Source: Fidelibacterota bacterium
GTDB taxonomy: Bacteria; Fidelibacterota; UBA8477; JABMPR01
Reading direction: 5' to 3'
DNA: 64,000 nt
NCBI GenBank assembly: GCA_018650795.1
Contig: JABIFG010000058.1
Span: 9,497-73,496 of the forward strand
The position numbers and the translations under genes were made by a program. The notes below the pieces were generated by a model. The model did no database searches and had not been told where the DNA came from. It saw nothing but the letters and a program-made list of their open reading frames with translations. The stretch's first letter is position 1; the number at the start of each line of letters is the position of its first letter. Shown piece by piece: positions 18,535 to 39,003 of this stretch.

Positions 18535-18650
18535 GGTAAGGAGACTGAGCTTGTCGAAGTCGGTTGGTTATCACCCTATGGTAATGGACATTTCGTCCTT
18601 CGACTCCGCTCAGTATGACAGCTCAATGTCCGAGGAATCTTATAGCTTCA
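18535..18650. repeat. Copy of the dispersed intergenic element (CTGAGCTTGTCGAAG ... CGACTCCGCTCAGTATGAC)
   Basis: Shares the CTGAGCTYGTCGAAGT core and a CTCAG(G/T)ATGAC end with the copies at 6156, 38886 and 57978. Confidence 0.4.
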
Positions 18651-20157
18651 GGGTATATCCTAGCATAATGCGATCGTTTCTATCAGTGATATAATGCATG
18701 CTGGTTGCGAAGTAATCCAGATATTTTAGTTGTTGCCAGCTATAAGCAATATCAAAAGTACCCCAGAGCATGTCGATGGCTATCCCACCTGAATAGATAT
18801 CCTGTTCCGGTCCTCGATCGATAAATGGCGATCGCCAGCCATGAAATTCACGGCTACCTGTTTGATAACCACCCGCAAGCTTTACCCTGCTATGGATTTT
18901 GTAAACAATTCCTAATTTCATGGTCAATACGTCAACCCAGGGTTGGTAACCATCTAGTGTTTGACTGGTATCACCCAGGCTGATTTTTGCTTCCGATAAC
19001 GGATTCCAAATCAAATCGAAGTAAACCTCCAATTGATCTTTTGGTTTTACAGCTATGCCAAAACTGGATTTTACCGGTAACGCGATATCCATTGATATTC
19101 CGCTTGTATCCAGCACAAAAGCTGAATCATCAGGTTGAATAAACCAATCTGCATCAGAATATTTACGAGTCATCGTGGCAGGTAAATCAAACTGAAATCC
19201 TGCCGAAAAATCAGGGGTATGAAACTGTAGTGACAAATCTAGAATATTTGCCGACCAATCACTATCCGCAGTATTAACTTTAGCAGCAGTTGTGTCATCA
19301 TAATAAAAGGCAAAACCACCATTGGGACGCCACTTATAATCTCCATAGTGTGCCCATGATATATTGTCATTTGTTGTGCCGGACAGTGATTTCATGCCAA
19401 TACCAACATTCGCCCATTCAAAAACTTCGACAGCCAGTGCTGCCTGAAGCACAGCCATATCGCCTTTCCGCTCTCGGACATATGTAAACTGGTGCAAATC
19501 CAGGGTATCGCCATCAGTATTCAGACCTGGATCAGCCCAATCCCCGATAACAGGATCGAGATAGGCTTCATTCTGATCATAATCGTATATATTCTGGTTT
19601 CGATAAGCCAGGGCTAATGCAATCGTCCGTCCACCAAAAATCGCAAGGGGTAAACCTAGACTCACATTTGAAATACCTGAGAGTTCCAACTTCTGTTCCC
19701 AGTCCCGTGCTTTATAATCCCAGAAATTCAAACCAGTATCATTCACCTTGATATCATCAGGTGTGAGCAAATTAAATAGGGAATCCACCCAAATACCGTT
19801 GTTACTATGTACAGGTTGGTAAGTTTTATCTATAATACGCAGAATAAGGGGGTCAACCCTATCTTCCATCATGACCATATTTTCAAATTGATTTCGATTC
19901 GAGATATGACCATTAAATTGAAATTGAATTCCTTCCAAACCGACTAAACCGGCTGGATTACGAAAGATATCATTCAGAGTTCCATCACCTGCCACTCCCG
20001 CGCCAGCTTTTGCCAGAGTCCAGGGGGTTTCGGTTTCAAGGTTTGCCATCCCATGCAAGAGAATCACCTCTCCATTCCCCTGCCCCAAAAGCGAGAGAGG
20101 GAAAAAGGCAATGCTTGCCAGAGTTAATATTACAGTGATTGATTTAAATTTATTCAT
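18640..20157 (-). CDS. long PorV/PorQ-like (FadL-like) T9SS-associated outer-membrane beta-barrel, 505 aa
   Basis: Signal peptide. N-terminal block AKAGAGVAGDGTLNDIFRNPAGLVGLEGIQFQF shares the xxA(R/K)xxxxGxxxxxxxxxNPAGL signature with the shorter PorV-like proteins and with its 514-aa paralog at 44802-46346. Ends in alternating barrel-type strands ...LGYTLKL. Confidence 0.5.
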   Translation of the reverse strand: MNKFKSITVILTLASIAFFPLSLLGQGNGEVILLHGMANLETETPWTLAKAGAGVAGDGTLNDIFRNPAGLVGLEGIQFQFNGHISNRNQFENMVMMEDRVDPLILRIIDKTYQPVHSNNGIWVDSLFNLLTPDDIKVNDTGLNFWDYKARDWEQKLELSGISNVSLGLPLAIFGGRTIALALAYRNQNIYDYDQNEAYLDPVIGDWADPGLNTDGDTLDLHQFTYVRERKGDMAVLQAALAVEVFEWANVGIGMKSLSGTTNDNISWAHYGDYKWRPNGGFAFYYDDTTAAKVNTADSDWSANILDLSLQFHTPDFSAGFQFDLPATMTRKYSDADWFIQPDDSAFVLDTSGISMDIALPVKSSFGIAVKPKDQLEVYFDLIWNPLSEAKISLGDTSQTLDGYQPWVDVLTMKLGIVYKIHSRVKLAGGYQTGSREFHGWRSPFIDRGPEQDIYSGGIAIDMLWGTFDIAYSWQQLKYLDYFATSMHYITDRNDRIMLGYTLKL

Positions 20158-20170
20158 ACTTATATCCAGC

Positions 20171-21163
20171 CTATCTCATCACATAGCTCAGACTAAAACG
20201 CTGAACGTATTGCAAGAAGTCATCATAATCATTATATGCATAATCGAATTTAAAATTTCCCAGGGCTACCCCAGCTCCCAGACTGAGTCCCTCAGTGAGA
20301 TAATTGATTTTATATCCTCCCCGCAAGAACAGTCTTTCTTTCAAAGCCCATTCTGCACCCACGTTATACTGTTGATCATAATCCCTGGGGGCTAGCAGAT
20401 CTGCTGCCAGAGTGAGTCTTTGAAACGAATTTGTCCCCATCAAGCCACCTTCTGGACCAAAGCATTCAGTGGCGAATCCTAAAATAAGTACCTGAGGTGC
20501 TGAAAATCCCTTCTCTTCAAATACGATGTCATCTCCAAAATGACGAACAACTGCACTGGTTCGTAGTGTTCTCCAGCCGGAGCGATAGAGCACACCACCA
20601 TCAAAAAGGATTTGATCGTCCTTGGAATAAATGAGGTCTTCCTGCACAAATTTGGCAGTGATACCAAAACTGAATTTATCTGTTACAGCTCGGGCATAAG
20701 TCAGACCCAACATGAGATGATTAGGAGAAAAGTAATCTTGAGAAGTGGCAAATGCCTGGTATTCCGCCAGACTGGAGACATTGGTTGTATGGAGTATTTT
20801 ACCAATATCATTGTATTGATACTGTATGGCAAACGTGCCTAACCGGGTTCCGAAGAGTGCAACACCTCCCATATTTCGGACATCTGCAAAATAGTTATAC
20901 ATAGACATAGACAATTCATATTTCCCTGCGTCAGTTAGCCCGGCAGGATTGTAATATACGCCATCAGCATTATCAGCCACTGCCGTAAAAGCTTCGCCCA
21001 TACCGTTGGCTCTGGCATCCGGTTTTACCTTCAGGAATTGAAATGCAGTTGTCCCCTCTTTAGTCGTCTGAGCATCAATTGTTGAGAGTGCTAACAGCAG
21101 ACACAAGGGCAAGACTATTGATTTGATTCTCTTCAATTTCATCATTCTTTCTCCTTGGGTCAC
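20171..21163 (-). CDS. PorV-like T9SS-associated outer-membrane beta-barrel (PorV/PorQ family), about 325 aa
   Basis: TAFQFLKVKPDARANGMGEAFTAVADNADGVYYNPAGLTD is the characteristic PorV-type N-terminal motif. C-terminal aromatic-rich beta-strands ...QRFSLSYVMR. Paralog at 46348-47433. Likely start MMKLKRIK (21145). Confidence 0.55.
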   Translation of the reverse strand: MTQGERMMKLKRIKSIVLPLCLLLALSTIDAQTTKEGTTAFQFLKVKPDARANGMGEAFTAVADNADGVYYNPAGLTDAGKYELSMSMYNYFADVRNMGGVALFGTRLGTFAIQYQYNDIGKILHTTNVSSLAEYQAFATSQDYFSPNHLMLGLTYARAVTDKFSFGITAKFVQEDLIYSKDDQILFDGGVLYRSGWRTLRTSAVVRHFGDDIVFEEKGFSAPQVLILGFATECFGPEGGLMGTNSFQRLTLAADLLAPRDYDQQYNVGAEWALKERLFLRGGYKINYLTEGLSLGAGVALGNFKFDYAYNDYDDFLQYVQRFSLSYVMR

Positions 21164-21165
21164 AG

Positions 21166-23445
21166 CTAGCGAATAATTACAAACTTTGTCATGGTCTGCT
21201 GTCCATCTGGTGTCTGAATGGCAACAAAATACACACCTGGAGCCAGGAGCATGTTATTCTCATTCACGAGATTAAAAGTGAGCGATCCACTCTCAGAGTT
21301 TTCATGCTCAATGCTTTGTACTTTCTGACCTGCAAAACTATAGACACGAATTGAGCATTTTTCAGGAAGTCCAAAAATACTGACTGCATTTGCAAGTGAG
21401 ACATTTTGAAAGCCACTTTCCAGAATAAAGGGATTTGGGACAATAAAAATGTTCTCAAGATCCCCTTCGGGACCAATATCCCTGCGATGTTGAGTCATAT
21501 TTGTTTTACCACTCTGAAAACCATTTACATCCCGCGTAGTAACTGAATAAAAGGCCACATCTGAAAAGGCGAAATCGATGTCATCATCTATATATTCGTA
21601 GATATTTTCAGAATTGACCTCCCCCGCTGAAATGGCGACTAATCGTTTCCAGGGACCAAGACGATTAAAACTTCTCCAGATATAAAATGAGTCCAAGGCA
21701 GCAGAGGAATGAGTAAAATCTTCAACTGCTCTTGACCAGGTAATATGGATATTGGCATCCTCATCGTTACTCACCTTAAGACCTGGTGCAGGAACTGGAA
21801 CATAGACATCATACACGCCATCTGGCTCCGTCCAATCCGGCCAACAGACGACTGAATCCTCCGCCCAGAGTGAATCATGTTCGATGTCCCATCCGGTATA
21901 GGCTTTCCAAGCCTCTCGAGCAACGTCCTGAACTGAGATAACCCCAGTTTCTGCATTGACATAATCGGGATATCCAAAAGTATCCAAATATCTGAAGGTG
22001 CTATCTCCTACTGTGAGTTCAGCATTAATATCAGGCGCTACACCCCAAAGGTCTGATTTCTGACCACCTCCAAATACCCTTTTACCTGGATCTGAACCAT
22101 ATCCAACGACCTGGGCAAAACTGAAATGAAGAATATCACCCCTGTTAATAGTATAGGGACCACAAACAAATGACGAGGCAGGCGCTTCTGCACTTTTAGG
22201 TTTATACTTGGGTCTTCCAACCCAAAACATTGGATGCTCATTTGGATCCGGTGCGTCAAGTTCTGGAAATTTACCTTGGGCCCGGCTATGTGTCTTATAA
22301 TGTGGTTTGTTGATGAGCGATGTAGAAACAAACCAACCAGCATTCTGGATAATCCCCCAGGGCTGCTTGATAGTTAAATTCTCATCCCATTCAAAGTCAG
22401 CTGCATGTTGAGCATATTCCATTGTTGTCAGATGAAAGGTCGTATCATTTGTATCAAGAACTGTCAGATGCTCCCTATCCCAATGAAGCGCTGTATGCCC
22501 CGCAGCCTGTGGTGCCAGCAATCCACCACCATTCAAACCAGTAGACGAAAACTCCCAAAAAAGATCCTCATCCGGTTCAGGATGATATGGCTTGGAGTGA
22601 TCCTGCTGGGTGCTAATGCTCTGGCAATAAAACATGGTGTAGTCTGTATCGAAACTGTTGTATACATCACCCCTGAAAATTCCTGGTTTCCAGTACCAGG
22701 AACCAAAGGTTCTCTGAAAGCTCATCATGTTAGGTGGTATAGCCGTATGGAATGCAAACAAGGCATCTACATAGGTATCTACTGAGTCCTGCTCTATAGT
22801 GTTTTCATCATAGTCCGTATTGCCCGTAAATTCCAGTTCATACTCATGGAAAATGATATCATCCAGCATTGGATAGCTGTATTGACGAGTGACCCTCGTA
22901 ACTGTCATACCCACACTGGTAGCAAATCGAGTGTGAATGAGCTGTTCAGCCTCATTTGGATCGAAATCAGGATTGAGACTACCATCTTCAAGCAGAGGAT
23001 AGTTGGTTTCTTTCCAGAATTCAAGTGGCCAGCACCAAACTTCATATTCCATCTCTGGACCGCCCGAGCCCACCATTCCAGCGAATGAAAAGTGTTTTTG
23101 ATCAACTCCCAGTTTTCCTGGATGGTTCACACCAATATGGATACCACCTCCCAGACCGTTGTGTTGACCATAATATTCAATATTATCAATAACAGTCCTT
23201 GACCAGGCTGGCCATTCGGTCATAGGTGTATTGGTTGATTCAATTCCATTATTTTTGTAGGGGGCTACGAAGACTCCCGTGTTATAAAAAGTCTCATGGA
23301 GGGTACCGCGATCATGGACCAAACGCTCACGTTGAGCCCATAAGCCAGAAGTAATACTCATCAGCAATATGACATATAATACCAATTTTAAGCGATTTGA
23401 CATAGCAGTCTCAGTTGAACTTTCCTGATATATATAGTTCATCAT
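21166..23445 (-). CDS. large secreted protein of unknown function with a type-A T9SS CTD (unrecognised family; paralog of 47430-49793)
   Basis: Signal (MSNRLKLVLYVILLMSITSGLWAQ, probable start 23403). Conserved blocks shared with the paralog: EWPxxSxTVxxxIxYxGQHNxxGGGIHIGxNxxxK, HFSFxGxVGxGGPE and GGLLAPQAAG. CTD IFIVPNPF...GVYFVAIQT...KFVIIR. Confidence 0.6.
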   Translation of the reverse strand: MMNYIYQESSTETAMSNRLKLVLYVILLMSITSGLWAQRERLVHDRGTLHETFYNTGVFVAPYKNNGIESTNTPMTEWPAWSRTVIDNIEYYGQHNGLGGGIHIGVNHPGKLGVDQKHFSFAGMVGSGGPEMEYEVWCWPLEFWKETNYPLLEDGSLNPDFDPNEAEQLIHTRFATSVGMTVTRVTRQYSYPMLDDIIFHEYELEFTGNTDYDENTIEQDSVDTYVDALFAFHTAIPPNMMSFQRTFGSWYWKPGIFRGDVYNSFDTDYTMFYCQSISTQQDHSKPYHPEPDEDLFWEFSSTGLNGGGLLAPQAAGHTALHWDREHLTVLDTNDTTFHLTTMEYAQHAADFEWDENLTIKQPWGIIQNAGWFVSTSLINKPHYKTHSRAQGKFPELDAPDPNEHPMFWVGRPKYKPKSAEAPASSFVCGPYTINRGDILHFSFAQVVGYGSDPGKRVFGGGQKSDLWGVAPDINAELTVGDSTFRYLDTFGYPDYVNAETGVISVQDVAREAWKAYTGWDIEHDSLWAEDSVVCWPDWTEPDGVYDVYVPVPAPGLKVSNDEDANIHITWSRAVEDFTHSSAALDSFYIWRSFNRLGPWKRLVAISAGEVNSENIYEYIDDDIDFAFSDVAFYSVTTRDVNGFQSGKTNMTQHRRDIGPEGDLENIFIVPNPFILESGFQNVSLANAVSIFGLPEKCSIRVYSFAGQKVQSIEHENSESGSLTFNLVNENNMLLAPGVYFVAIQTPDGQQTMTKFVIIR

Positions 23446-23454
23446 AGTAGTCCC

Positions 23455-26379
23455 TTAAAAAGTCCACTGAACGCCAAGGCGAAAATAGCGAGGAGCGTTT
23501 TGATAGTAGCGAATGTGCTGGGGGAAATCCATGGGAGAATAATCACTTTCCACCATAACAGCATCGATGTCGCCTGCCTCATATTCTTCAATTGCTTCAA
23601 AGTCCTTAAATAAGGAATAGGCATAAACCTTTTCGTTCAAGACATTAAAGATAGTGAGGTTAAGGTTGAGTTTCTGTTTCCCAAAACGCATGTTCTTAGC
23701 AATTTTCATCTGAAGATTATTCTCGTCAGGACCGACTTTATTGAATTTTGTTCCAATTGCTTCTTCAGGACCATAGTACGTATAGGGTCTTCCCTCTTGA
23801 AAAGTGAATTTCGTATTGACTGAGATACCAGAGATAGGTTGTACTCCAAAGATCTGGGGTCCGAACCCGCTGGGAGTTTTATAGCCGATATTTGTGATAA
23901 TCCTGTTTCGGCGATTATAGTTCATGATCACATCTTCAGGTTCCGGCGCGCGATTATTCTCATGATCAAAATCATAGCGCCCATCTGAACCTTCCTTGTA
24001 TGATAGGGTAGCGTCAAAGGGTGTGGGGTTCTTGCCAATTGCTTTCTGGAAATTATAGCGAACGCTCATATTAAAGTTGCCCTGTTTTCTAACAAGACTC
24101 AAACTGAAGCCCTTGATATTGGCATAATCAAGATTGGCAAATCCCTTATAATCAGATCCGGTTGAATCCTCATAGAAGACCGTCTGCACCAGATTTTTCA
24201 CATCCTTATAATAGGTCGAAATATTTAACCTGAAACCAAAGGGTAGTCCCTGAACCAGACCAAAATCATAGGCATTGGTTCGTTCTGGTTTCAATCGGGC
24301 ATTACCCAATTCATCAACCTCATTGCCTGTAATATCATAATAGCGACGATAGATTTTGTCAAAATTGGGACGCTGAGTAAAACTTCCATAGTTAACATGA
24401 ATCACCGAGCGATCATTGACCGGATAAGAAAAGCCCAACCTGGGTTGCAGGTGGTAAACCAACTCGGTTTTGGCAGTTTCTGCTAATTCAGGATCGTTAA
24501 AAGGTCCACGTAAACCTGGTGGTAAACTCGCATCATAATTCGGATTAGCAGTCGGATGGAAAAGATTTGTAAAATATTCATAGTTATAATTATAAAAGTC
24601 AAAACGTAGACCAATATTTGCAACCAGACCCTCGAATTCCATCTTGTCCTGGACATAGAAAGCTCCCTCGTAGGGTTTCTCATGATATGTCAGGATTTGA
24701 GCATTTGGTGAACTCGCCGATGCAGACCGCTCCGTACGCAGATCATAGCTAAATAGTTGCCATCCAGCTTTTATCAAATTTCCCATGTTGAGTTGTTTAT
24801 TCCAGGATCCATAAAAGCGCAGGGTGCTGGTCTCCTCAGTAGTATAGCTATTTTCCAGGACCTTATTATTCAGATCACCAGGTAACCAGATGGGCGTATT
24901 AAAATCGCTCCCAAAATTTGAACCCATCCATTCAGGATCACGTACAGGATATCTGTGAGCATAGTCCGTGGTAAAACTCCTCAGGTTCATCTCCATATAG
25001 GACTTTTTACTAAATATGTGCTCCCAGCGAAGACCATAATCTGCTGCCTGGTTTCTATCACGGTGAGGGCCATAATCAGGATTGAAAATTTTAACATACC
25101 TATTCCCAACACTCCAATTGAGCTTATCGGAGGCAAAGTAATTCAGGGAAATGATTAGTTTGTTTGAGAAATCCGGTGCCCATGAAAAATTGGACATGAG
25201 CTGTCTTGATTTATTTGGAAAAGCGGTCAAGACTTTGGTTCCATCTACCTGCTGTCTGACTGCCAGAAAGATTCTGGTCTTGTCAGACACGGGTCCACCA
25301 GTTGAAAGATCAATGCGGTAATCCGTCACTTCATCATACGACAATCCTATTTGTCTGGCAAAAGCCAGGTATTGAGCCCGAGCAAACTGAGCCACTTTAA
25401 GACTGTCCTCATGGGTGGCATTTTCGAGATCCACATAATTAGCGTAGGAGCCATTGCTATTCCAGTTAATCAATGATTGACTGGAATCCTGCTGACTGAC
25501 CTGAAGCCAATTCTCTGCGTCCCCTCCAAACAGATTGTGAGGTCTGACATCTTCGCTCCAGGCAGATCCACCCCAGTGATTATAGTGCGGTAATGTTCCG
25601 GAGTAATTCACCTTGGTACTCCAACGCTTTCCGCCTGTTTTGGGGACCATATTGATTACCCCTGACTGAGCATTTCCATACTCAGCCGAGAAACCTGAGG
25701 TAAACACTTCCACCGCCTGAAGACCAGAGGTCATCGGCTTAAAGGAAGCTTTATTGGATAATGGGTTTACTATACTAGCTCCACCGATCAGATATTGAGT
25801 TTCGGCTTCACGACCTCCACGAACATTATCTTCAACAATATCAGCATTGAGATCAATAATATCCTGGACATCGTAGATTCCAGCCACTTCCTCAAGTTCT
25901 GACATGATATAGTTCTGTTTAGTAGCGGTGAGATCTTTTTGAATCATGTCAGATCGGAAGGCGGTTACCAGAATATCATCCAGGAGTAATGATTCGGAAC
26001 TCAAGTCAAAAAATATTTCAGTAGTTTTGTCTACGTCTATGCGCACCATTTCAATCTTTTTTGACTGGTAGCCCATCATGTGGGCTTCGACATTGTAAAA
26101 ACCAGGCTCAAGATTAAGGATATAGAAACGACCATCAAGATCTGTGGCAGCTCCAAGAGGTCTACTCAATGGTTCGATTTCTCCACCGACCCAGCGCTCA
26201 TTAATAATAACGTTGGCACCAATCAGTCCCTTATCAGTTCCAGTATCACGAACAGCTCCAGAAATTTTACCCGTTTGATCTGCCATTACTGAGGATTGAA
26301 TGATCAGAGCCATCAGTATGGCGCTTTTTATTCGTTTTATCATTTTTGGGGATTGTGGCATAAAGCCTCTCCTTAGCAT
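23455..26379 (-). CDS. TonB-dependent receptor (carboxypeptidase-regulatory-like N-domain, plug, 22-strand-type barrel)
   Basis: GKISGAVRDTGTDKGLIGANVIINE...DGRFYILNLEPGFYNVEAHMMGYQ; plug ...TSGFSAEYGNAQSGVINMVPKTGG; terminal YFRLGVQWTF. Paralog at 49828-52746. Confidence 0.8.
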   Translation of the reverse strand: MLRRGFMPQSPKMIKRIKSAILMALIIQSSVMADQTGKISGAVRDTGTDKGLIGANVIINERWVGGEIEPLSRPLGAATDLDGRFYILNLEPGFYNVEAHMMGYQSKKIEMVRIDVDKTTEIFFDLSSESLLLDDILVTAFRSDMIQKDLTATKQNYIMSELEEVAGIYDVQDIIDLNADIVEDNVRGGREAETQYLIGGASIVNPLSNKASFKPMTSGLQAVEVFTSGFSAEYGNAQSGVINMVPKTGGKRWSTKVNYSGTLPHYNHWGGSAWSEDVRPHNLFGGDAENWLQVSQQDSSQSLINWNSNGSYANYVDLENATHEDSLKVAQFARAQYLAFARQIGLSYDEVTDYRIDLSTGGPVSDKTRIFLAVRQQVDGTKVLTAFPNKSRQLMSNFSWAPDFSNKLIISLNYFASDKLNWSVGNRYVKIFNPDYGPHRDRNQAADYGLRWEHIFSKKSYMEMNLRSFTTDYAHRYPVRDPEWMGSNFGSDFNTPIWLPGDLNNKVLENSYTTEETSTLRFYGSWNKQLNMGNLIKAGWQLFSYDLRTERSASASSPNAQILTYHEKPYEGAFYVQDKMEFEGLVANIGLRFDFYNYNYEYFTNLFHPTANPNYDASLPPGLRGPFNDPELAETAKTELVYHLQPRLGFSYPVNDRSVIHVNYGSFTQRPNFDKIYRRYYDITGNEVDELGNARLKPERTNAYDFGLVQGLPFGFRLNISTYYKDVKNLVQTVFYEDSTGSDYKGFANLDYANIKGFSLSLVRKQGNFNMSVRYNFQKAIGKNPTPFDATLSYKEGSDGRYDFDHENNRAPEPEDVIMNYNRRNRIITNIGYKTPSGFGPQIFGVQPISGISVNTKFTFQEGRPYTYYGPEEAIGTKFNKVGPDENNLQMKIAKNMRFGKQKLNLNLTIFNVLNEKVYAYSLFKDFEAIEEYEAGDIDAVMVESDYSPMDFPQHIRYYQNAPRYFRLGVQWTF

Positions 26380-26510: not shown

Positions 26511-26547
26511 CAAAAAAGAGGGCAGTCCGTATACCAGACTACCCCCT
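26511..26547 (-). terminator. Rho-independent terminator downstream of the 1500-aa gene
   Basis: Minus-strand reading AGGGGGTAGTCtggtatacgGACTGCCCTCTTTTTTG: 8-bp stem (one G·U), 9-nt loop, T-run. A second hairpin GCCCGcaCGGGC lies at 26477-26488. Confidence 0.55.
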
Positions 26548-26572: not shown

Positions 26573-29500
26573 TTACTTGAGTAAGATCATTTTTCTAGCT
26601 TGACCGTAGCTGCCAGCCTGGATACGATATATATACATACCGGCGCCAACGGGTCGACCATTTTGATCAGTACCATTCCAGATAGCCGTATGATAACCAG
26701 CATCTCTGGACTCGTTCACGAGCGTTGATACCAATCGACCCTTGAGATCATAGATACTCAAAACAACCTGTGAAGCTTCTGGAAGTCCATAGCTTAAAGT
26801 GGTTGCAGGATTAAACGGATTGGGATAGTTATTTTCCAAAACATAGTCATCGGGAATGATACCTTCAGCATGAAGACCTACTGCTGTAGCATCTACAGTC
26901 AGTGTAAATGGGCCATTAGAAGCTGATACAGGATCAGCAACACCGTCTGATATGGACATCGTCCATGATCCAGCGGCTGTTCCATCATCCGGCAGGGCGT
27001 CTGCAAGTGCAGCATAGGTGATATAGGCCATAGAACTTCCCTCAAGAATAAGATCGTTTGCAAGGAATCCTAAATCATCTGATCCCTCCAAAGTTATCTC
27101 AAGTTCATCACCATCCACATCAATCAGATCGGACCATGTAAACCATAGTGTATCACCGAGTGTTGTGGAAGTAATCGTAACTGTTGTGGCATCTGCTGGT
27201 GTATTCAATGCAAAGTCCGTTGGTGCATCGTTAACTGCATTCACAGTCACCATCATGGTATCGCTGACTGTGGCTCTGGTAGTTGGATTGCTGGCGGTAA
27301 AGACGATTTCAGTGCTACCATTGGCATCAGGCAAGAATTGCAGGGTAACCACGTTGTCTGTAACCGATGCAAAGACCAGTGATTCATCACCAATCACATG
27401 ACTGTAAATCAGTTCTTGATCAATATCAATAAAGACTGTATCCAGATCGACCAGCAGCAGATCCGCAGCATCCTCATCTACCATGACATCGGCAATTGGA
27501 TTGATGACGACTGGCAAATCATCAACTGGACCAACGACGAGTACAAAACTGGTTGTAGCATCCAATAGGCCATCGCTGACTACAACATCAATGTTTGCTG
27601 TACCGCTCCAGTTGGCAGCAGGTGTCAAAGTCAGCATAGCATCAACCAGGAAGGAAGGCACCACGTTGGCTTCATCTGAAGTTGCCGAATACGTCAAGGC
27701 ATCCTCTTCAGCATCAACAGCGATGATGGGCACCACCAGGATTGTATCTTCACCAGTAAACTGTGCTGGAATGTCTGTAATCACAGGTGCAGTGTTGGGC
27801 ACAAAGGTTCCCCAGTTACGGTCACCAATATTGTCCCCATCGCTAGCAGCGCCCACATAGGCAGATGTTGAAGCGAGGCGAAAATCACTGGCTGCGACAT
27901 CAGCAAACATAGGATCGGCCACACCGATGCAGTTCGTTGATGCTGGAACTTTGTCATTATTGCGTGAATCAAAGTTAAACCAACCACTATAATACAATGA
28001 ATCTGGATAGGCATCGATTGGTTCAGCAGTATTTTTTGTCACATTCCATCTCTGAACATTTGAGAATATGTTATTCCCAACAAATGTCCCTGCTTCACTA
28101 CCGAACAACTTGATTGTGTGGTTATTAGCAATACTATAAAATGTACAATGGTTTATAGTTACGATTGAAGGATCTGATCCATCATCGTAATTTGATATTC
28201 TAATGGGAAGGATCAGATTTGAGAAAGTACAATCTTCGATCAGGATGACAGAAGCAGCTGGAATGGTATCGACATCGCTGGGGTTATTTGCATCACCCAT
28301 AAAATCAAGCGGTCTGGCAAACAGCAAATTTGAAAATTTGCTGTTCGTGATACTTAAAGTATCCAGACTAGAACCATCTGAAGTGCTTTCCAAAAATTCT
28401 TGTCTGACGGCTTTCTCACCATTTCTGAAATCACAATTGTCAACCACAAGGTTATTGATACCGGGTTGGCCATAATCCATCAGCGTATCACTGTATACTA
28501 CAAATACGCCAATCGTATCTGTGGCCATTGCCAGATCTTCTTGACCAAAAACCAGACCTTGCAGGCTTATATCAGCCCAGGCTCGAATAAGATTTTCGGT
28601 AATATCTCCTTGTCCATAGGCAAACTCTATTACAGGTTTTTCGGTGAGCCCATCAGCTGCTTTGATTGTTATTGGCTTATCCACAATGAAAGTCGTGTCT
28701 GTGTACATTCCTCCATCTGTGGTGAGCACAATAATATCACGAGCATTTGCCGTGGCGATGGCATTTGATATGGCATACATACCTGCTGCCACTTCAATTT
28801 CATTACCGCCTGGTCCCATGTCGACCATATCATATCGCAGGGTTCCCATTATCTGATAGCCATCGTCGCGTGGATCTGATGAATCATACTGGGTGACAAC
28901 ACCCTTGAGATCCATGAGTACCTGAGGAGGATACCAACCGTCTAAATCGGTATCACTATCAATCCTGAGTGTAACTGTATTGGTGCCATCTGTCAGATCG
29001 ACACTGGCACTGTTTCCGTCAGTTGGCCAGGTAGATGGGTCAACGAGATAAACATCATCAACTTTGATAAATGAACCTTCATTGGCCTCACCCAGTAGAT
29101 CCAGGGTGATTAATGTTGGTACTCTTGCGTTTTCCGTACTCAGGACAGAAACACTGGCAGCGGTCACCTCAAGTTGGGTCAGACCGTTATACTGACTCAC
29201 CTCACCAAAGACCTCTACTTCATCTCCAATATTTAGAACTAAGTCCGTTCCGTCTGCATGTAATACAATTCCGGCTGTGGCATCCTGAATGTGATAGGCA
29301 CGATAGTAACCACCATAGTCAGGAGAAGTTACAATACCCATAACATGAACCAGATCCCCGAGTTTGTCTGGAACTAAATTAGCATCGGAGTCTAAACGAG
29401 CATCAGCAATGGAGATTACTGGTAGTACAATAGAGAAGGCTGCGTCACTCACATCTGAAACAGCTCCATCCTCCACTACGGTTAGACGGACACTGCAAAG

Positions 29501-31075
29501 CGTGGAGAGTTCATTTGGAATAGTCCAGGTATAGGTACCCAGGGTTGCATCCACACTGGCTGCTAATTCAGTCCAGGTAGTGCCATCGCTGGTATACTCA
29601 ATCTGTACATTGGAAATAAATCCAGAATCCCACGTAATTTCATAGTCTTCACCAACTTGCCATTCTTCGCCACCGTTTGGAGCAGTGAGCGTAACATAAG
29701 GAGATACAATTGAGAAGGTAGCATCTGACACATCAAAGGCTGTTGCATCTGCAGCATCTGAAATCTTTACCAAGCATGTGGGTGAATCAGCAACTGGTAG
29801 TGTCCAGGCGTAGGTCCCCAGAGTAGCATCCACAGAGGCAGCAATTTCAACCCATGTGGCACCGTCATCTGTCGTATAATCCAATTTGACATTTGTAACA
29901 TTGTCGGTTACCCAGGTGATATCATGACTTGTGCCCTGCAACCAGATTTCTCCACCGTTGGGTGCCCCAACGACGATAACGGCTGCACCGTCAGCTCCGT
30001 ATTCAAAAGCACCAATATCAAAAGGAGTCAGGCGAGCATAGCCGCGTGCATCATTCAGAGGGATATCTATACTATTAATAGCGGTTGCATCACCAGCATC
30101 AATGGCAACTGATCCCGGATTCAAAGCTATAGTTGGCACACCAAGAGTAGTATTGTTAGCCGCTACATCCGAAGCCAAATTTAATGCTGAAATATCATAG
30201 ATATTATTCGTTCCGAGCAAAGTACCCGATATTCCGACAGTGTCGCCGACAACGTTATAGTCGCCATCAATAGCCTGAGTCGCTGGATCAAAAAGTGAAA
30301 TATCATATGCTGAATTGTTGGCAATAATATTATTTTGTAAATAATAGGTGCCAGTATTCCCTGAATTATTGGGACGCATGACGATACCACCATCATTATC
30401 AACAATAGTACAGTTGATGATAGTCATCTTATACGTGTCCTTATTCCATAATTCGACAACACCTTCGAAACCGGTATTATTGGATATGGTACTATTCAGC
30501 ATCACGGCGCCATCTTTTTTTACGATACAAACCGCAGCACCAGTTTGAGCAGATTGGCCTTGGTTATAGTCTATGGTGCAATTATCAATCATTAGCCTGG
30601 ATCCAGCTCCACCGATTCCAGCCCCTTTTTTAGCATTCACCATTTTGTTTCTGGTAACATGCAGGTTTACTAGAAAGACATCGTCTTTTCCACTTGCGAT
30701 CTCAATTCCGGCACCATGGCTCGATCCATTTTTCTGAGCGTGCTGCACAGTCATGTCACGAATCACAACATTTGGTTCAGCATTTACTAAAAACACAGGA
30801 TCAGTATCTACACCTGTCTCAGTGGTAGGATCAACAGCCTGGGCCTGGACAATCGTCTGGTCTGCGCCCTGTCCCATAATCACTACTGCAGCGCCGACAG
30901 TAACTGTCTCGGTAAAAGTTCCTGCAGCAAGACTGACAGTATCACCTGCAGCTGCACCCAGAATTGCTGTATTAATACTTTCCCCTACAGCGACGTTATG
31001 AGTTATTGCCTGACCCAGACTACAAAAAACAGTCATTGCCAGAATCAAACTAAAAATGGTTAGCTTTCTAAACAT
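26573..31075 (-). CDS. giant (1500 aa) secreted multidomain protein: N-terminal beta-helix, three tandem ~55-aa beta-sandwich repeats, second beta-helix region, cadherin/Ig-like repeats, type-A T9SS CTD
   Basis: Signal MFRKLTIFSLILAMTVFCSLGQA. Beta-helix rungs NCTIDYNQG.../NNTGFEG.../NCTIVDNDGG. Repeats GGEIWLQGTSHDITWVTDNVTNVKLDYTTDDGATWVEIAASVDATLGTYAWTLP (three copies). VNAVNDAPT and VTDNVVTLQFLPDANGSTEIVFTASN are cadherin-like. CTD ENNYPNPFNPATTLSYGL...GMYIYRIQ...RKMILLK. Strong SD AAGGAGAGAGCACC-ATG. Confidence 0.75.
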   Translation of the reverse strand: MFRKLTIFSLILAMTVFCSLGQAITHNVAVGESINTAILGAAAGDTVSLAAGTFTETVTVGAAVVIMGQGADQTIVQAQAVDPTTETGVDTDPVFLVNAEPNVVIRDMTVQHAQKNGSSHGAGIEIASGKDDVFLVNLHVTRNKMVNAKKGAGIGGAGSRLMIDNCTIDYNQGQSAQTGAAVCIVKKDGAVMLNSTISNNTGFEGVVELWNKDTYKMTIINCTIVDNDGGIVMRPNNSGNTGTYYLQNNIIANNSAYDISLFDPATQAIDGDYNVVGDTVGISGTLLGTNNIYDISALNLASDVAANNTTLGVPTIALNPGSVAIDAGDATAINSIDIPLNDARGYARLTPFDIGAFEYGADGAAVIVVGAPNGGEIWLQGTSHDITWVTDNVTNVKLDYTTDDGATWVEIAASVDATLGTYAWTLPVADSPTCLVKISDAADATAFDVSDATFSIVSPYVTLTAPNGGEEWQVGEDYEITWDSGFISNVQIEYTSDGTTWTELAASVDATLGTYTWTIPNELSTLCSVRLTVVEDGAVSDVSDAAFSIVLPVISIADARLDSDANLVPDKLGDLVHVMGIVTSPDYGGYYRAYHIQDATAGIVLHADGTDLVLNIGDEVEVFGEVSQYNGLTQLEVTAASVSVLSTENARVPTLITLDLLGEANEGSFIKVDDVYLVDPSTWPTDGNSASVDLTDGTNTVTLRIDSDTDLDGWYPPQVLMDLKGVVTQYDSSDPRDDGYQIMGTLRYDMVDMGPGGNEIEVAAGMYAISNAIATANARDIIVLTTDGGMYTDTTFIVDKPITIKAADGLTEKPVIEFAYGQGDITENLIRAWADISLQGLVFGQEDLAMATDTIGVFVVYSDTLMDYGQPGINNLVVDNCDFRNGEKAVRQEFLESTSDGSSLDTLSITNSKFSNLLFARPLDFMGDANNPSDVDTIPAASVILIEDCTFSNLILPIRISNYDDGSDPSIVTINHCTFYSIANNHTIKLFGSEAGTFVGNNIFSNVQRWNVTKNTAEPIDAYPDSLYYSGWFNFDSRNNDKVPASTNCIGVADPMFADVAASDFRLASTSAYVGAASDGDNIGDRNWGTFVPNTAPVITDIPAQFTGEDTILVVPIIAVDAEEDALTYSATSDEANVVPSFLVDAMLTLTPAANWSGTANIDVVVSDGLLDATTSFVLVVGPVDDLPVVINPIADVMVDEDAADLLLVDLDTVFIDIDQELIYSHVIGDESLVFASVTDNVVTLQFLPDANGSTEIVFTASNPTTRATVSDTMMVTVNAVNDAPTDFALNTPADATTVTITSTTLGDTLWFTWSDLIDVDGDELEITLEGSDDLGFLANDLILEGSSMAYITYAALADALPDDGTAAGSWTMSISDGVADPVSASNGPFTLTVDATAVGLHAEGIIPDDYVLENNYPNPFNPATTLSYGLPEASQVVLSIYDLKGRLVSTLVNESRDAGYHTAIWNGTDQNGRPVGAGMYIYRIQAGSYGQARKMILLK

Positions 31076-31147
31076 GGTGCTCTCTCCTTCGAATTAAATT
31101 CTTGAACAGATACTATAAAATGTTGCTACATATAATTAATGGTAATA

Positions 31148-31165
31148 GTATACTAATTATACCCA
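31148..31165. promoter_or_regulatory. GTATA-N5-TATAC palindrome about 80 bp upstream of the 1500-aa gene
   Basis: agtatactaattataccc in the 290-bp AT-rich leader region 31076-31362. Confidence 0.3.
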
Positions 31166-31362
31166 CCCAGACAAATACTATTCTACTTTTTTCCTCCCCG
31201 AAAAGCCTTTTGTTATAGGGTTAGGCTAATGTATGTTGAAAAACTGGGTGGAAATAGTGGAAATTTATTGATGATAATTTTTATCAACTTATGAACTGTT
31301 TTCCCCAGTTTCACCGTCCATACCTTAGATACTCTCATTGAGTTCTATTGTCATTAAATGCG

Positions 31363-31698
31363 TTACAAACTTATACCAAAGTACTGCAACACCAACTGGT
31401 CTAATCCCGTATTCTCAAGCGCATGCCGTTCCCCTGCCTCAACAACCACGGTTATACCCGTCATGAGATCGTAATGACTGCCCTCTATGGTGATAACTCC
31501 AGATCCACTCTGCACAATGAATATCTCAATCAGGTCCTTATGAACATGCTCCTCCACCTTTTCACCTGGGGGATATGCCGATTGTGCCAGGGTAGAAATA
31601 TTCCCGATCTCATGATATTTCAATATGACCTGCTTCTTAATTCTTGGATTGTGAGAAACAGAATCTTGAGGCAATTCTTTAAGATTAACAAGCTTCAT
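31363..31698 (-). CDS. cupin-domain protein
   Basis: 111 aa; GEKVEEHVHKD...EIFIVQSGSGVITIEG...VVVEAGERHALENTG is the two-motif cupin_2 signature. Confidence 0.7.
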   Translation of the reverse strand: MKLVNLKELPQDSVSHNPRIKKQVILKYHEIGNISTLAQSAYPPGEKVEEHVHKDLIEIFIVQSGSGVITIEGSHYDLMTGITVVVEAGERHALENTGLDQLVLQYFGISL

Positions 31699-31713: not shown

Positions 31714-33222
31714 TTATCCCTCGTCATAAAACTGATAGTCCCGGTGATTGTGCAGGTGCTTCCTGGCATATTTTTCATTGGAGAAATACTTCCAGACTTT
31801 CTTGCCCTTTTTAGTTTTGAAAAATGGATCGGCTGCCTGTATCGGTGGATACTGTTCCAGAACCTTCTCAAAATATTTTCTGGCTTTCAATACATCAGGA
31901 TCGGAGGAATCCGACACATTTTTATATCCATGTCCGTCTCTACTATCCCCACAATCGTAAAAACGCCCCTGTGGCATATCCAGAATTGGATTCAGGGCTT
32001 CAAGCAAATAACGTCTGGTACGCATGAGCTGCGTTGTGCCAACTGCACTATAAATCCAGTCCCTGTGCGCGTCTGAATCACCATTAAAAAATGGTTTCAG
32101 GCTCTTGCCGTCGACTTCATAGCCACGGGGTAAGTCACCACCAGCATATTCAACCACCGTTGGCAGGATGTCTGAGAGATCTGTCATTTCTGCAGTGAGT
32201 CCACGCTGTTTCACCGGACCACCAAAGGCTACAAAAGGAACGCGACAGCCCCTCTCAACTCCTCGAGATTTTGCGGTGGAACCTGTTCCATTGTCTGAAC
32301 AATAAATAATGATGGTGTTATCAAGAATATCCAGATCTTCCGCTTTTTTGATAATTTGCCCAACCAAAACATCGATATACTCATTCATAGCGGCAAAACG
32401 AGCCTGTTTCTCGCCTGATTCCAATCCGCCACCGATTTCACCCTGTTTACCGCGCAGCGGTGTGGTGGCTGGTCCCTTTCGAGTACCATGTGGTGCGACC
32501 ATGGGGTAGTATGCCAAGAAAGGTCCCTTTTTATTTCTCTCCATAAAATCACAAACAAAATCTGTAAATATCTGTGGTCCATAATCATCAGGTTTGGTAT
32601 CTAGCAATTTATGATTCTGGATAATCCCGGGGTGCCAATAGCGAGCAGTCGTAGCTTCATCTTCCCAGGCGCCTTTGTGTTTGGGTGATCCCTGTAGCTT
32701 TTTGATTTCACCTTTTGATTCCCAGAGGCAGTATTCTTCAAATCCACCCGTTTCAGAGTAGGGTGTACCTCTACCAAGATGCCATTTCCCTGCAATAGCC
32801 GTGGCATATCCAGCCTGTTTGGCCAGTTTCCCAAAACTATGATGATGGGCATGCAGATCTTCACTATTTTTTGCAACAGGATATTTGAAATTATTATGAT
32901 AAAATCCGGTACGATTCGCATATCGGCCTGTCATGATCATCGCTCGTGTCGGGCTACAAATGGCGCTGGACCAGGCGGTATCAAACTGAACTCCCTCCCT
33001 GGCTATTCTATCGATATGGGGAGTTTTTACCTCGCTATTTCCATAACAACCATACAGATCGGGACTCACGTCATCTGACATGATCAGAACAATATTCGGA
33101 CGATCCCCCGATTTGCTTTTCTTACCAAAGATTCCTGAATGTGCTAGTTGTGGTAGCGATATAGCAGCAAGTCCAACACCTGCTTTGCTTAAGAATTGAC
33201 GTCTATTCAGGTTATTTGTCAT
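31714..33222 (-). CDS. S1-family sulfatase, Tat-secreted
   Basis: NRRQFLSKAGVGLAA; MSDDVSPD...CSPTRAMIMTGRYANRTG. Confidence 0.9.
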   Translation of the reverse strand: MTNNLNRRQFLSKAGVGLAAISLPQLAHSGIFGKKSKSGDRPNIVLIMSDDVSPDLYGCYGNSEVKTPHIDRIAREGVQFDTAWSSAICSPTRAMIMTGRYANRTGFYHNNFKYPVAKNSEDLHAHHHSFGKLAKQAGYATAIAGKWHLGRGTPYSETGGFEEYCLWESKGEIKKLQGSPKHKGAWEDEATTARYWHPGIIQNHKLLDTKPDDYGPQIFTDFVCDFMERNKKGPFLAYYPMVAPHGTRKGPATTPLRGKQGEIGGGLESGEKQARFAAMNEYIDVLVGQIIKKAEDLDILDNTIIIYCSDNGTGSTAKSRGVERGCRVPFVAFGGPVKQRGLTAEMTDLSDILPTVVEYAGGDLPRGYEVDGKSLKPFFNGDSDAHRDWIYSAVGTTQLMRTRRYLLEALNPILDMPQGRFYDCGDSRDGHGYKNVSDSSDPDVLKARKYFEKVLEQYPPIQAADPFFKTKKGKKVWKYFSNEKYARKHLHNHRDYQFYDEG

Positions 33223-38703: not shown

Positions 38704-38810
38704 CCTGGATTCACAGTCCTATCATATTGTATATATAACACTAACAGAAGCAGTCCTATTTTTAATGTATTTATATAGTAACATCAATCTATTGTGTCTT
38801 TATGTATATT

Positions 38811-38820
38811 TAGTATACTA
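38811..38820. promoter_or_regulatory. 10-bp perfect palindrome TAGTATACTA inside the shared block TCAATCT..TATGTATATTTAGTATAC, about 110 bp upstream of the gene start
   Basis: The same block (tcaatct...tatgtatatttagtatac) recurs at 42716-42739 upstream of the paralog that starts at 42611. Confidence 0.35.
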
Positions 38821-38885
38821 TATATTTTAATCATTCCAAGGAATACCTAAACAGTTATTTAGTGACACCAGAAAGTGAGAATTGT

Positions 38886-38978
38886 GTCATTCTGATGGAG
38901 CGCAGTGATAGAAGAATCTTGGTCCTTTTGATGGAATCCTTCTTATGGATCAAGATCCTACGCGGTGCTCAGGATGAC
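38886..38978. repeat. Copy of the dispersed intergenic element with clear terminal inverted repeats (GTCATTCTGATGG ... GCTCAGGATGAC)
   Basis: gtcattctgatggagcgcagtgatagaagaatc...cgcggtgctcaggatgac. The internal sequence resembles 6156-6190 (gtcatcctgaggctctcgaaggatgatagtcc). Confidence 0.5.
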
Positions 38979-39003
38979 GGGGAGAAATGACATTTCGATG
39001 GAC

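Follow-up and report, generated by a model that had tools for sequence, protein, structure and literature searches.

The fucoidanases of family GH107 combine a head domain, Ig repeats and a T9SS tail; FcnA is an example of such multi-module T9SS enzymes, and in the surface protein RbtA of A. baumannii the anchor is a GlyGly-CTERM/rhombosortase signal. The C-terminal domain of the PL6 lyase BoPL6 is catalytically inactive, yet binds polyguluronate (PMC12992946), and B. thetaiotaomicron proteins of the DUF4957 and DUF5123 types are listed beside TonB-dependent receptors (PMC10434189). DdbD, a DUF5689 protein, has been proposed to be the substrate-binding partner of a CarboxypepD_reg transporter (bioRxiv 10.1101/2025.03.18.642099), and an AF3 model predicts that it docks on DdbC.

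We analysed a window of 64,000 nucleotides from an uncultured marine Candidatus Marinimicrobia bacterium, in which a single open reading frame (1500 codons plus stop) encodes a multi-module protein, here called the giant. A protein with one residue different from the giant carries the name Candidatus Marinimicrobia. We give about even weight to the reading that the giant is exposed at the cell surface and, without being an enzyme, serves a sulfated-fucan locus as a glycan-capture protein or adhesin. Because only binding-type and spacer modules are recognisable in the sequence, it would most likely hold a fucose-rich sulfated polymer at the surface without cutting it. The sorting domain, the conserved gene order, a leader palindrome and the pairing of beta-helix 2-type modules with transporters support exposure on the surface by way of T9SS as well as a function linked to the glycan locus. 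The features, all on the minus strand, are as follows.

26573..31075, minus: whole gene (orthologs of 73% and 70% identity align over the entire length)
31076..31362, minus: AT-rich leader and promoter region, 287 bp (base composition, sequence reading)
31139..31162, minus: 24-nt leader element GTATAATTAGTATACTATTACCAT (conserved in three lineages, with one substitution in L004)
31010..31075, minus: signal peptide, aa 1-22, Sec/SPI type without lipobox (read from sequence; conserved in orthologs)
29981..31009, minus: beta-helix 1 with choice-of-anchor Q C-terminal cap, aa 23-365 (cap aa 313-359)
29699..29977, minus: Kre9/KNH-like Ig repeat 1, aa 367-459 (motif and repeat search, Pfam)
29420..29695, minus: Kre9/KNH-like Ig repeat 2, aa 461-552 (52% identical to repeat 1)
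28841..29419, minus: DUF5689 module, aa 553-745 (PF18942 above threshold, aa 553-732)
27800..28840, minus: beta-helix 2, DUF4957/DUF5123 type, aa 746-1092 (homology to PL6 C-terminal domain)
27527..27799, minus: Big_9/cadherin-like Ig module, aa 1093-1183 (PF17963 above cut-off)
26876..27526, minus: acidic stalk region with VNAVNDAPT linker motif, aa 1184-1400 (motif search)
26576..26875, minus: T9SS type A C-terminal sorting domain, FlgD_ig type, aa 1401-1500 (profile match aa 1417-1497)
26517..26547, minus: intrinsic terminator, 13-bp stem, 5-nt loop and T6 tail
18640..26379, minus: downstream uptake cassette (domain matches; order conserved in L001-L004)
11015..13606, minus: beta-helix 2 paralog (25% identity, 384 aa aligned), joined to X25 and CBM20 modules and a T9SS sorting domain

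As the initial annotation had it, this is the largest gene of the locus (the runner-up ORF in the window has 974 aa), with an AT-rich leader, put there at 290 bp and found here to be 287 bp (33% GC vs 44.6% in the gene), and a strong terminator, which lies in a 68-nt stretch after the stop codon with dG -25.1 kcal/mol and z -4.6 relative to shuffles. That this terminator separates the giant gene from the transporter cassette was counted against capture. The ribosome-binding site AAGGAGAG (31089-31082) is placed 6 nt ahead of the ATG. The full protein has 1500 residues; in its mature form it has a mass of ~156 kDa and a pI of 4.05. By inspection the N-terminus looks like a signal peptide of the Sec type, MFRKLTIFSLILAMTVFCSLGQA followed by ITH, and the sorting domain scores 34.3 bits with TIGR04183 (cut-off 23), so that the signals for the T9SS export claimed earlier are both present and export itself is predicted. 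The C-terminus shares 30-42% identity with those of nine other window proteins and 26% with that of a tenth; 11 further window proteins have sorting domains, and PorV/PorQ-family genes also occur in the window.

The 24-nt leader element overlaps a promoter-like TTGTCT-16-TATACT and contains a GTATA-N5-TATAC palindrome (31148-31162) that is identical in all three lineages. Perfect copies occur in 5 of 11 intergenic regions, the giant's leader and four others, against a shuffle expectation of 0.007, and occupy orthologous positions in L001 and L004. The giant gene is its own transcription unit, yet has a cis-element that other operons of the locus also carry. Around the orthologs (73% and 70% identity) the order sulfatase, cupin, giant, transporter cassette is maintained, and it is kept in three lineages despite rearrangements in L004.

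These observations bear on the possibility that the giant is a general surface adhesin or coat protein, serving in attachment to particles or a host or forming a layer that protects or acts as a decoy, without taking part directly in glycan capture for import, and with a position in the locus that is historical. Its separate transcription would fit, as would beta-helix 1, which belongs to the RbtA class of widespread surface beta-helices and to no defined pectate-lyase family: its 403 relatives are found in very diverse multi-domain surface proteins and its top structural match is A. baumannii RbtA, which leaves its role unexplained, since the function of RbtA is itself unknown. The Kre9/KNH-like repeats, too, are spacers of a generic kind that hundreds of giant T9SS proteins contain, and the mosaic, module-by-module divergence between orthologs suggests surface variation. 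We nevertheless regard this reading as unlikely, as the palindrome, conserved in orthologs, links the promoter region with those of four further transcription units in the locus, gene order survives in all three lineages, and beta-helix 2-type proteins recur near similar transporter genes in other glycan loci. For the initial annotation, the contrary outcome was that the domains belong to a well-characterised family of adhesins unrelated to glycans, haemagglutinin for instance; the modules do not resolve into one.

Between the two beta-helices lie spacers and a DUF5689 module. The two Kre9/KNH-like repeats, scanned alone, reach 34.3 bits with PF10342 (threshold 24.6), and the first carries an Asp-box-like TTDDGATW motif. 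Motif searches and tiled BLAST of the giant found no third copy of the GGExW...ITW...DGxTW...LGTY pattern, of which three had been announced. Cadherin-like repeats had also been proposed, and one such module stands: Big_9 matches aa 1094-1175 (27.7 bits vs 23.6), whereas Cadherin_5 (PF17892) falls just short (24.7 vs 26.5), NCBIfam tandem-95 gives two weak stretches, and neither a Pfam scan nor an internal repeat search returned anything for aa 1176-1400 (~220 residues); the proposal is borne out in part. The VNAVNDAPT motif is present in the acidic stalk (aa 1278-1286), and this region probably comprises two further Ig-like modules.

The DUF5689 module scores 42 bits with PF18942 (threshold 28.6; profile positions 3-205 of 217) and weakly matches the N-terminal region of ExeM/NucH. 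Downstream, the cassette encodes a CarboxypepD_reg TonB-dependent transporter (23455-26379), a 759-aa T9SS protein, a PorV/PorQ-family protein and a FadL-like barrel. A sharper form of the capture reading would have DUF5689 dock on this transporter and hand over substrate, as DdbD may on DdbC, making the giant the substrate-loading subunit of a SusD-independent transporter. The near-full-length, above-threshold match suits such a role; the giant gene is immediately upstream of the transporter gene, no SusD-like family is matched in the window, and the genes for both DdbD, for which docking is predicted by AF3, and Riemerella RA0C_RS04920 adjoin CarboxypepD_reg outer-membrane transporter genes. 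We consider docking very unlikely all the same: the module is no lipoprotein lid but internal to a C-terminally anchored 156-kDa protein, a polyanion would not suit its net charge of -25, and AF2 models its fold poorly (pLDDT ~25, against 46 overall, with much of beta-helix 2 also poorly modelled). Moreover, a GH29 gene intervenes between giant and transporter in L004, the cassette has its own candidate lid in the 759-aa protein with its PorQ-like partner, and the second cassette of the window has no DUF5689 protein. The absence of a partner of the giant's kind upstream of this second cassette was also counted against capture.

The homology of beta-helix 2 is limited to the C-terminal domain of two-domain PL6 lyases. 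It matches 7DMK residues 426-675 by phmmer (E 1e-15); its family profile aligns with 7DMK 423-744 (E 5e-36), and also with 7O77 432-709 and AlyGC 438-673. Every top Foldseek match is a two-domain PL6 enzyme, and DUF5123 scores 32.4 bits, under its 35.1 cut-off. Of the two activities first suggested, polysaccharide binding or depolymerisation, binding fits this resemblance to a polyguluronate-binding domain (PMC12992946), and depolymerisation is left without support. We found no catalytic family in the giant with Pfam or NCBIfam; the PL6 catalytic domain is not matched, and PF14592 is absent. The only PDB chains returned by phmmer are those of the PL6 C-terminal domain, FlgD and, at chance level (E 0.096), a single designed protein, and therefore no solved fucan-degrading enzyme. 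When either beta-helix is aligned with its relatives, no Asp, Glu, Lys, Arg or His of the helix body is invariant, although in beta-helix 2 the absence of a conserved catalytic residue is weak evidence because its alignment holds 7 sequences. Many glycan-cleaving enzymes occur among beta-helix folds, which was counted against capture.

Could one of the helices nonetheless be the first member of a new family of endo-acting lyases or hydrolases that degrade sulfated fucans? The giant would then be a secreted depolymerase whose Ig, DUF5689 and cadherin-like modules serve for binding and spacing, in the manner of the Flavobacteriia fucoidanases with several modules and a T9SS tail. Its layout of head domain, Ig repeats and T9SS tail recalls the GH107 fucoidanases, and no ORF of the window is assigned to an endo-fucanase family by Pfam or NCBIfam. 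We judge this distinctly unlikely, given that beta-helix 2 matches the non-catalytic PL6 domain and never the catalytic N-terminal one (PMC12992946), that the beta-helix 1 profile, too, aligns with the C-terminal part of 7DMK, and that the fucoidan lyase FdlA surfaces at no better than E 0.4 with the model of the mid-region and is missing from the listed top 50-60 matches of beta-helix 1. Beta-helix 1 also diverges more than any other module between close orthologs (50% identity vs ~80% elsewhere in P0002), unusual for a catalytic core. Better enzyme candidates are the five other beta-helix proteins of the neighbourhood, four with GH141-type domain matches and three with T9SS tails.

Alongside these five, the neighbouring genes include four GH29 fucosidases and four sulfatases. 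The initial annotation had proposed that the giant could capture fucoidan; the GH29, sulfatase and GH141-type neighbours are consistent with this, and it is from them alone that we infer the specificity. The pairing of beta-helix 2-type modules with transporters is seen elsewhere: the gene of the paralog, whose X25 and CBM20 are binding modules, is directly upstream of a further TonB-dependent transporter gene (8477-10900), and in L018 and L019 small proteins consisting of a signal peptide, a beta-helix 2-type module and a sorting domain are encoded beside cassettes of the same kind (transporter, ~736-aa and 335-aa proteins in L018; PorV-like and FadL-like genes in L019), in loci that carry GH88/GH20 or PL6 genes.

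On the capture reading, the giant would use Sec to pass the inner membrane and T9SS to pass the outer one. The sorting domain would then be removed and the protein would stay surface-attached, by analogy with type A cargo in Bacteroidota, with the C-terminal acidic cadherin-like/Ig stalk keeping the N-terminal modules off the membrane. Beta-helix 2, possibly with DUF5689 and beta-helix 1, may bind anionic polysaccharide. Direct electrostatic binding of a sulfated polyanion is disfavoured by the pI of 4.05 and the module charges (-25 for DUF5689, -28 for beta-helix 2), although this trait is common to the whole set of T9SS cargo in the window; given the strong acidity of every module, binding would perhaps proceed through bridging Ca2+. 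Captured polymer could thus be concentrated close to the GH141-like enzymes that are secreted and to the adjacent TonB-dependent transporter cassette.

Compared with known systems, beta-helix 2 has the same N-cap and C-cap motifs as the PL6 C-terminal domains of BcAlyPL6 (7DMK), Patl3640 (7O77), AlyGC (5GKD) and BoPL6, and the acidic loop aligned with their 'DEST' loop reads DDGS. It differs in being embedded in a 1500-aa T9SS protein that has no catalytic N-terminal domain for it to complement, and in its likely ligand, a sulfated fucan rather than alginate. The DUF4957/DUF5123 proteins of Bacteroides glycan-utilisation loci are relatives likewise encoded beside TonB-dependent transporter genes. 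Most members of the RbtA/choice-of-anchor Q class have better GGGI rungs than beta-helix 1, and the RbtA anchor differs from the giant's T9SS tail. DdbD, from a B. thetaiotaomicron DNA-utilisation locus, and RA0C_RS04920 share with the giant the Pfam family DUF5689 and a gene adjoining that of a CarboxypepD_reg-type TonB-dependent outer-membrane transporter, but they are stand-alone, proposed DNA binders, whereas the giant's DUF5689 is internal, very acidic and part of a glycan locus. With the SusE/F-position lipoproteins of Bacteroidota and with GH107 FcnA the giant has in common the logic of a multi-domain surface protein with Ig-like spacers and transporter and enzyme neighbours; it lacks a lipid anchor, a SusC/SusD pair, a recognised CBM and a GH107 catalytic domain. 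Unlike the surface glycan-binding proteins of Bacteroidota polysaccharide-utilisation loci, it belongs to a different phylum and is predicted to be anchored through T9SS.

We find that the largest of the 33 ORFs of at least 200 residues in the window, 31 of which lie on the minus strand, is a gene of 1500 codons at 26573..31075 (-), hereafter the giant gene. Its start is credible, since the ribosome-binding site AAGGAGAG ends 6 nt 5' of the ATG, the encoded N-terminus is a typical Sec signal peptide, and both full-length orthologs share the start position in the alignment. The gene is preceded by a 287-bp intergenic leader of 33% GC, vs 44.6% in the gene itself, and is followed, 26 nt past the stop codon, by a hairpin with a 13-bp stem and a T6 tail; the 68-nt post-stop stretch containing this hairpin folds at -25.1 kcal/mol (z = -4.6 vs shuffles). 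The ORF, GC and folding data bear out the initial annotation of the gene, its AT-rich leader and its strong terminator. The giant gene is a separate transcription unit, and Rfam returns no RNA family in the window, the leader included.

Pfam, NCBIfam and PDB searches, together with two structure predictions, give the module order of the giant protein, and these assignments leave no residue range that could conceal a further, catalytic domain:

aa 1-22, signal peptide
aa 23-365, beta-helix 1 with choice-of-anchor Q cap
aa 367-552, two Kre9/KNH-like Ig domains with an Asp-box-like motif
aa 553-745, DUF5689
aa 746-1092, beta-helix 2, of DUF4957/DUF5123 type
aa 1093-1400, Big_9 module and acidic stretch
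aa 1401-1500, T9SS type A sorting domain

The signal peptide, read from the sequence by eye, has n-, h- and c-regions and ends at GQA/I; a lipoprotein anchor was rejected, as there is no lipobox. At the C-terminus, TIGR04183 scores 34.3 bits (cut-off 23, aa 1417-1497) and PF13860 (FlgD_ig) 38.4 (cut-off 27), with PF18962 at 25.5, slightly below its cut-off of 27; the same region is 30-42% identical to nine other window proteins and 26% identical to a tenth. Two PorV/PorQ-family genes are found within the window. The giant protein is thus predicted to be exported and anchored at the cell surface. Each module bar the sorting tail has a pI of ~4.05, and Lys + Arg make up 3.7% of the protein. When 32 ORFs are tabulated, all window T9SS-tail proteins are strongly acidic (pI 4.0-4.9, K+R 4-8%), and the fucosidases and sulfatases, which are likely periplasmic, have ordinary compositions (pI 5.3-9.5).

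Beta-helix 2 is homologous to the C-terminal domain of two-domain PL6 alginate lyases. Its sequence matches residues 426-675 of BcAlyPL6 at E 1e-15, and a profile from a seven-sequence alignment (A4; three orthologs, three small T9SS proteins and a window paralog) that spans aa 553-1092, DUF5689 included for the three orthologs, matches BcAlyPL6 (7DMK, 423-744, E 5e-36), Patl3640 (7O77, 432-709, 3e-22) and AlyGC (5GKD, 438-673, 8e-18). All of these ranges correspond to the C-terminal domain, and the homology is significant across the whole of beta-helix 2, which places it among the PL6 C-terminal/DUF4957-DUF5123 modules; PF17161 scores 32.4 on the giant, under its cut-off of 35.1, and PF16318 or PF17161 is present in relatives P0123-P0125. 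The catalytic N-terminal domain of PL6 (Chondroitinas_B, PF14592) has no match in the giant at E <= 1, and membership in the PL6 lyases was rejected on this absence and on the confinement of PDB matches to the C-terminal domain. An AlphaFold model of aa 553-1092 from the seven sequences reaches pLDDT 46 overall, 50-90 in the helix core, and failed for DUF5689 and the DUF5123 tail; a Foldseek search with this low-confidence model, used solely as support for the sequence result, returns two-domain PL6 enzymes as all of the top twelve, with single-domain PL6 far lower. In two-domain PL6 enzymes the C-terminal domain accompanies a catalytic N-terminal partner, whereas the giant has no such partner, and in BoPL6 the C-terminal domain lacks catalytic activity, binds polyguluronate and shapes the N-terminal active site (2026 study, PMC12992946), so that the simplest transfer of function is anionic polysaccharide binding. 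We infer by this analogy that beta-helix 2 would bind an anionic polysaccharide without cleaving it.

Relatives of beta-helix 2 recur in other gene neighbourhoods. Three small proteins identified by sequence each consist of a signal peptide, a beta-helix 2-type module and a sorting domain, and two of the three could be placed on contigs: one follows genes for a CarboxypepD_reg transporter and for 736-aa and 335-aa proteins and precedes GH88 and GH20 genes, and the other comes after PorV-like and FadL-like genes and ahead of genes for a pectate-lyase-like protein and a T9SS PL6 lyase. The window itself encodes an 863-aa T9SS protein (11015-13606) that joins such a module, with 25% identity to beta-helix 2 across 384 aa, to X25 and to a CBM20 of starch-binding type; the next gene downstream (8477-10900) encodes a TonB-dependent transporter of the OMP_b-brl_3 type. 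These two genes form a second binding-protein/transporter pairing in the window. DUF4957 + DUF5123 proteins of B. thetaiotaomicron are listed adjoining TonB-dependent receptors (PMC10434189). With this recurrence, the beta-helix 2 module therefore behaves as a transporter-associated surface component of glycan loci.

AlphaFold2 predicts beta-helix 1, with 19 relatives as the alignment, to be a right-handed beta-helix (pLDDT 86, pTM 0.91), and in the giant this helix is followed by the NF041518 cap domain, as in the RbtA-like choice-of-anchor Q class. Queried singly in word-based homolog searches, the two beta-helices gave 2 and 3 matches; an exhaustive HMMER scan with beta-helix 1 yields 403 relatives among 50%-identity representatives, the best-scoring of which are mostly multi-domain proteins of ~600 to >4,000 residues. 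Columns that never vary across the family alignment form an asparagine ladder and the cap motif D-x-R...D-x-G-x-x-E, with no conserved acidic or basic residue within the helix body; the query has no enzyme-family match in Pfam, and 11 of 20 relatives match the generic PF13229 alone. A Chlamydia Pmp identity was rejected, with no match for the query and weak Chlam_PMP matches in three of the 20 relatives. We read beta-helix 1 as a putative ligand-binding surface module and not as an enzyme core.

The whole giant protein, searched against the PDB (phmmer, E <= 1), returns just FlgD, the PL6 C-terminal domain and, at chance level (E 0.096), one designed protein, and matches no catalytic domain of fucan-degrading enzymes whose structures are solved, such as GH107 and FdlA. 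When the low-confidence mid-region model is searched with Foldseek, the fucoidan lyase FdlA scores E 0.4; the matches listed for beta-helix 1 do not include it. A novel depolymerase would be compatible with the beta-helix fold, and no endo-fucanase family is named among the window ORFs; this identity has no positive support in the searches, however, and the other beta-helix proteins of the window, five in number and four with GH141-type matches, are better candidates, leaving it quite unlikely for the giant.

The modules between and beyond the helices are fewer than the initial annotation proposed. What was described there as a triple GGExW...ITW...DGxTW...LGTY repeat is present in two copies only (aa 367-459 and 461-552, 52% identical), a third having been rejected, and the cadherin-like repeats reduce to one module above threshold, Big_9 (PF17963, 27.7 bits vs 23.6, aa 1094-1175), with no further module assignable: Cadherin_5 (PF17892) scores 24.7, below its 26.5 cut-off, and aa 1176-1400, containing VNAVNDAPT, have no Pfam match and no detectable internal repeat. 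Haemagglutinin, TPS and autotransporter passenger families are absent from the Pfam and NCBIfam matches of the giant at E <= 1, so the haemagglutinin-type adhesin assignment that had been weighed against a glycan-directed role finds no footing there.

The window carries the following further features:

four GH29 fucosidases
4474-6114, sulfatase, twin-arginine signal RRKFM
16898-18442, sulfatase, twin-arginine signal RREFM
31714-33222, sulfatase, twin-arginine signal RRQFL
59895-61283, sulfatase, twin-arginine signal RREFL
five beta-helix proteins, four with GH141-type domain matches
twelve T9SS sorting-domain proteins
37336-44763, four consecutive BNR/YCF48-like propeller proteins
18640-26379, four-gene cassette, one copy, with the transporter at 23455-26379 and the PorV/PorQ-like protein at 20171-21163
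44802-52746, four-gene cassette, other copy

The four twin-arginine-type signals point to Tat export of folded sulfatases into the periplasm, and from the gene content a sulfated, fucose-rich polysaccharide would be a plausible substrate. T9SS tails are found in three of the four propeller proteins and PKD domains in two of those three; the propeller protein at 42850-44763 has Dockerin_1 above threshold and a weak Cohesin match. A 111-aa cupin ORF (31363-31698; Cupin_2/AraC-binding-like, without a DNA-binding domain) sits between a sulfatase and the giant leader, in the same place in all three lineages that carry the giant. Each cassette encodes a CarboxypepD_reg TonB-dependent transporter, a T9SS protein of 759 or 787 aa and two barrels, one of the PorV/PorQ family and one FadL-like. 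Identity between the 759-aa and 787-aa proteins is 40%, and their Pfam matches are confined to the tail; the 759-aa one has no PDB match, and its tail resembles that of PorZ. Similar gene sets occur on two contigs that encode small beta-helix 2-type proteins, L018 (1098-7465) and L019 (323-2881, PorV-like and FadL-like genes only), where they adjoin GH88/GH20 and PL6 genes. SusD-like families have no match in the window, and the cassette looks, by its gene content, like a SusD-less glycan-uptake unit in which the PorQ-like protein may anchor a T9SS-delivered lid.

We give about an even chance to the giant being a non-catalytic, T9SS-anchored capture protein or adhesin, the distal modules of which would bind the target polymer, so that the bound polymer would be held close to the secreted enzymes and the transporter; what the data show are the module identities, the relationship of beta-helix 2 to a non-catalytic binding domain, the absence of catalytic signatures, the recurring neighbourhood and the common cis-element, and what we infer from there are export, anchoring, ligand and handover to the transporter. 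A narrower form of this explanation, in which DUF5689 would adopt the OB/HIN-like fold of DdbD-like proteins and dock on the transporter, starts from a match to PF18942 (42 bits vs 28.6, aa 553-732, profile positions 3-205 of 217) and from the CarboxypepD_reg transporter gene that follows the giant gene, an adjacency with a parallel in two works on the family: the genes of the stand-alone DUF5689 proteins DdbD (B. thetaiotaomicron) and RA0C_RS04920 (Riemerella) each adjoin CarboxypepD_reg outer-membrane transporter genes. The module has a net charge of -25, its part of the AF2 model has pLDDT ~25, and a metagenome scan with the DUF5689 alignment gives no further relatives, so that the link to the transporter is a lead and not a result; the DUF5689 profile matches nothing meaningful in the PDB, and we consider docking very unlikely. 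The acidity of DUF5689 was considered as an exclusion of polyanion binding and retained merely as counter-evidence, because all T9SS cargo of the window is equally acidic.

A protein one residue different from the giant is deposited as 'DUF5123 domain-containing protein' from Candidatus Marinimicrobia/Neomarinimicrobiota bins and is found on 102 public contigs, and, of 5.8 billion clustered proteins searched, only those of two further lineages (73% and 70% identical) share the full architecture. The whole-protein homolog search was swamped by Kre9/KNH repeats, three full-length relatives emerging from it, and a genome-collection scan gave sorting-domain matches only (Cloacimonadota, KSB1) and no close genome. 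The sulfatase-cupin-giant-transporter cassette order is preserved in both other lineages, with an extra GH29 gene in one. Ortholog divergence is a mosaic by module (alignment A1): in ortholog P0002, beta-helix 1 is lowest at 50% identity and most other modules are at ~80% (range 66-88%), and in ortholog P0003, beta-helix 1 is at 78%, with Ig repeat 2 and beta-helix 2 at 57-59%. This pattern suggests that modules have been replaced one by one or that exposed parts evolve fast.

Alignment of the three giant leaders reveals one strongly conserved block, GTATAATTAGTATACTATTACCAT, located 67-90 nt 5' of the ATG, which is the same in the window and in ortholog locus L001 and differs by one substitution in ortholog locus L004; its core, GTATA-N5-TATAC, is identical in all three lineages. 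We find this perfect 15-bp palindrome in 5 of the 11 window intergenic regions >60 bp, compared to an expected count of 0.007 (20,000 shuffles of the intergenic sequences):

18472-18486, window
31148-31162, window
38804-38818, window
42724-42738, window
52872-52886, window
2076, 9915 and 22594, L001
971 and 9911, L004

The window sites lie 30-126 bp ahead of five transcription units, namely a sulfatase/fucosidase operon, the giant gene, two propeller genes and the second transporter cassette. In L001 the palindrome occupies the orthologous positions, and in L004 it precedes the giant gene, with an additional copy where a GH43 gene begins. At three sites the first half-site falls on a -10 element, 16 nt from a TTGnnn hexamer, and no regulator gene is visible within the window. 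The palindrome could serve as operator or promoter element for a regulon that spans the locus, and with this shared element the giant gene appears to be co-regulated with the degradative and uptake genes. Both this regulon signal and the conserved gene neighbourhood weaken the explanation that the giant is a generic adhesin or coat protein unrelated to uptake, which we consider unlikely.

A joint reading, very unlikely to hold in all its parts, is SusD-less import of fucose-rich sulfated polysaccharides in Marinimicrobia (SAR406), with the giant as the subunit that both captures and loads the substrate. T9SS-anchored proteins would take the place of lipoproteins, the PL6-C-terminal-domain-like beta-helix would bind the polyanion, DUF5689 would dock on the TonB-dependent transporter, a second T9SS protein would be held as a lid by locus-specific PorQ-like barrels, and the GTATA-N5-TATAC operator would control the whole set.

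Few forms of marine organic carbon resist degradation as strongly as fucose-rich sulfated polysaccharides, and Candidatus Marinimicrobia is, to our knowledge, an abundant phylum with no cultured representative. The locus gives this phylum a complete complement of fucosidases, sulfatases, transporters and secreted beta-helix proteins, and literature searches turned up no report of such a locus from Marinimicrobia. The giant is its most elaborate surface component; if a capture protein, it would be a concrete ligand-binding reagent for fucose-rich sulfated polymers and an entry point to glycan uptake without SusC/SusD pairs, and if merely a generic surface protein, the finding is ordinary. On either reading, all modules bar the sorting tail come from families whose function is unknown or little studied, and the surrounding locus is of more interest than the giant protein alone. 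The individual module families, mostly uncharacterised, are already known, as is the placement of a surface glycan-binding protein beside an outer-membrane transporter; new here are the phylum, the way the modules are combined, T9SS anchoring in a system that lacks SusC/SusD, and a PL6-type C-terminal domain that stands on its own.
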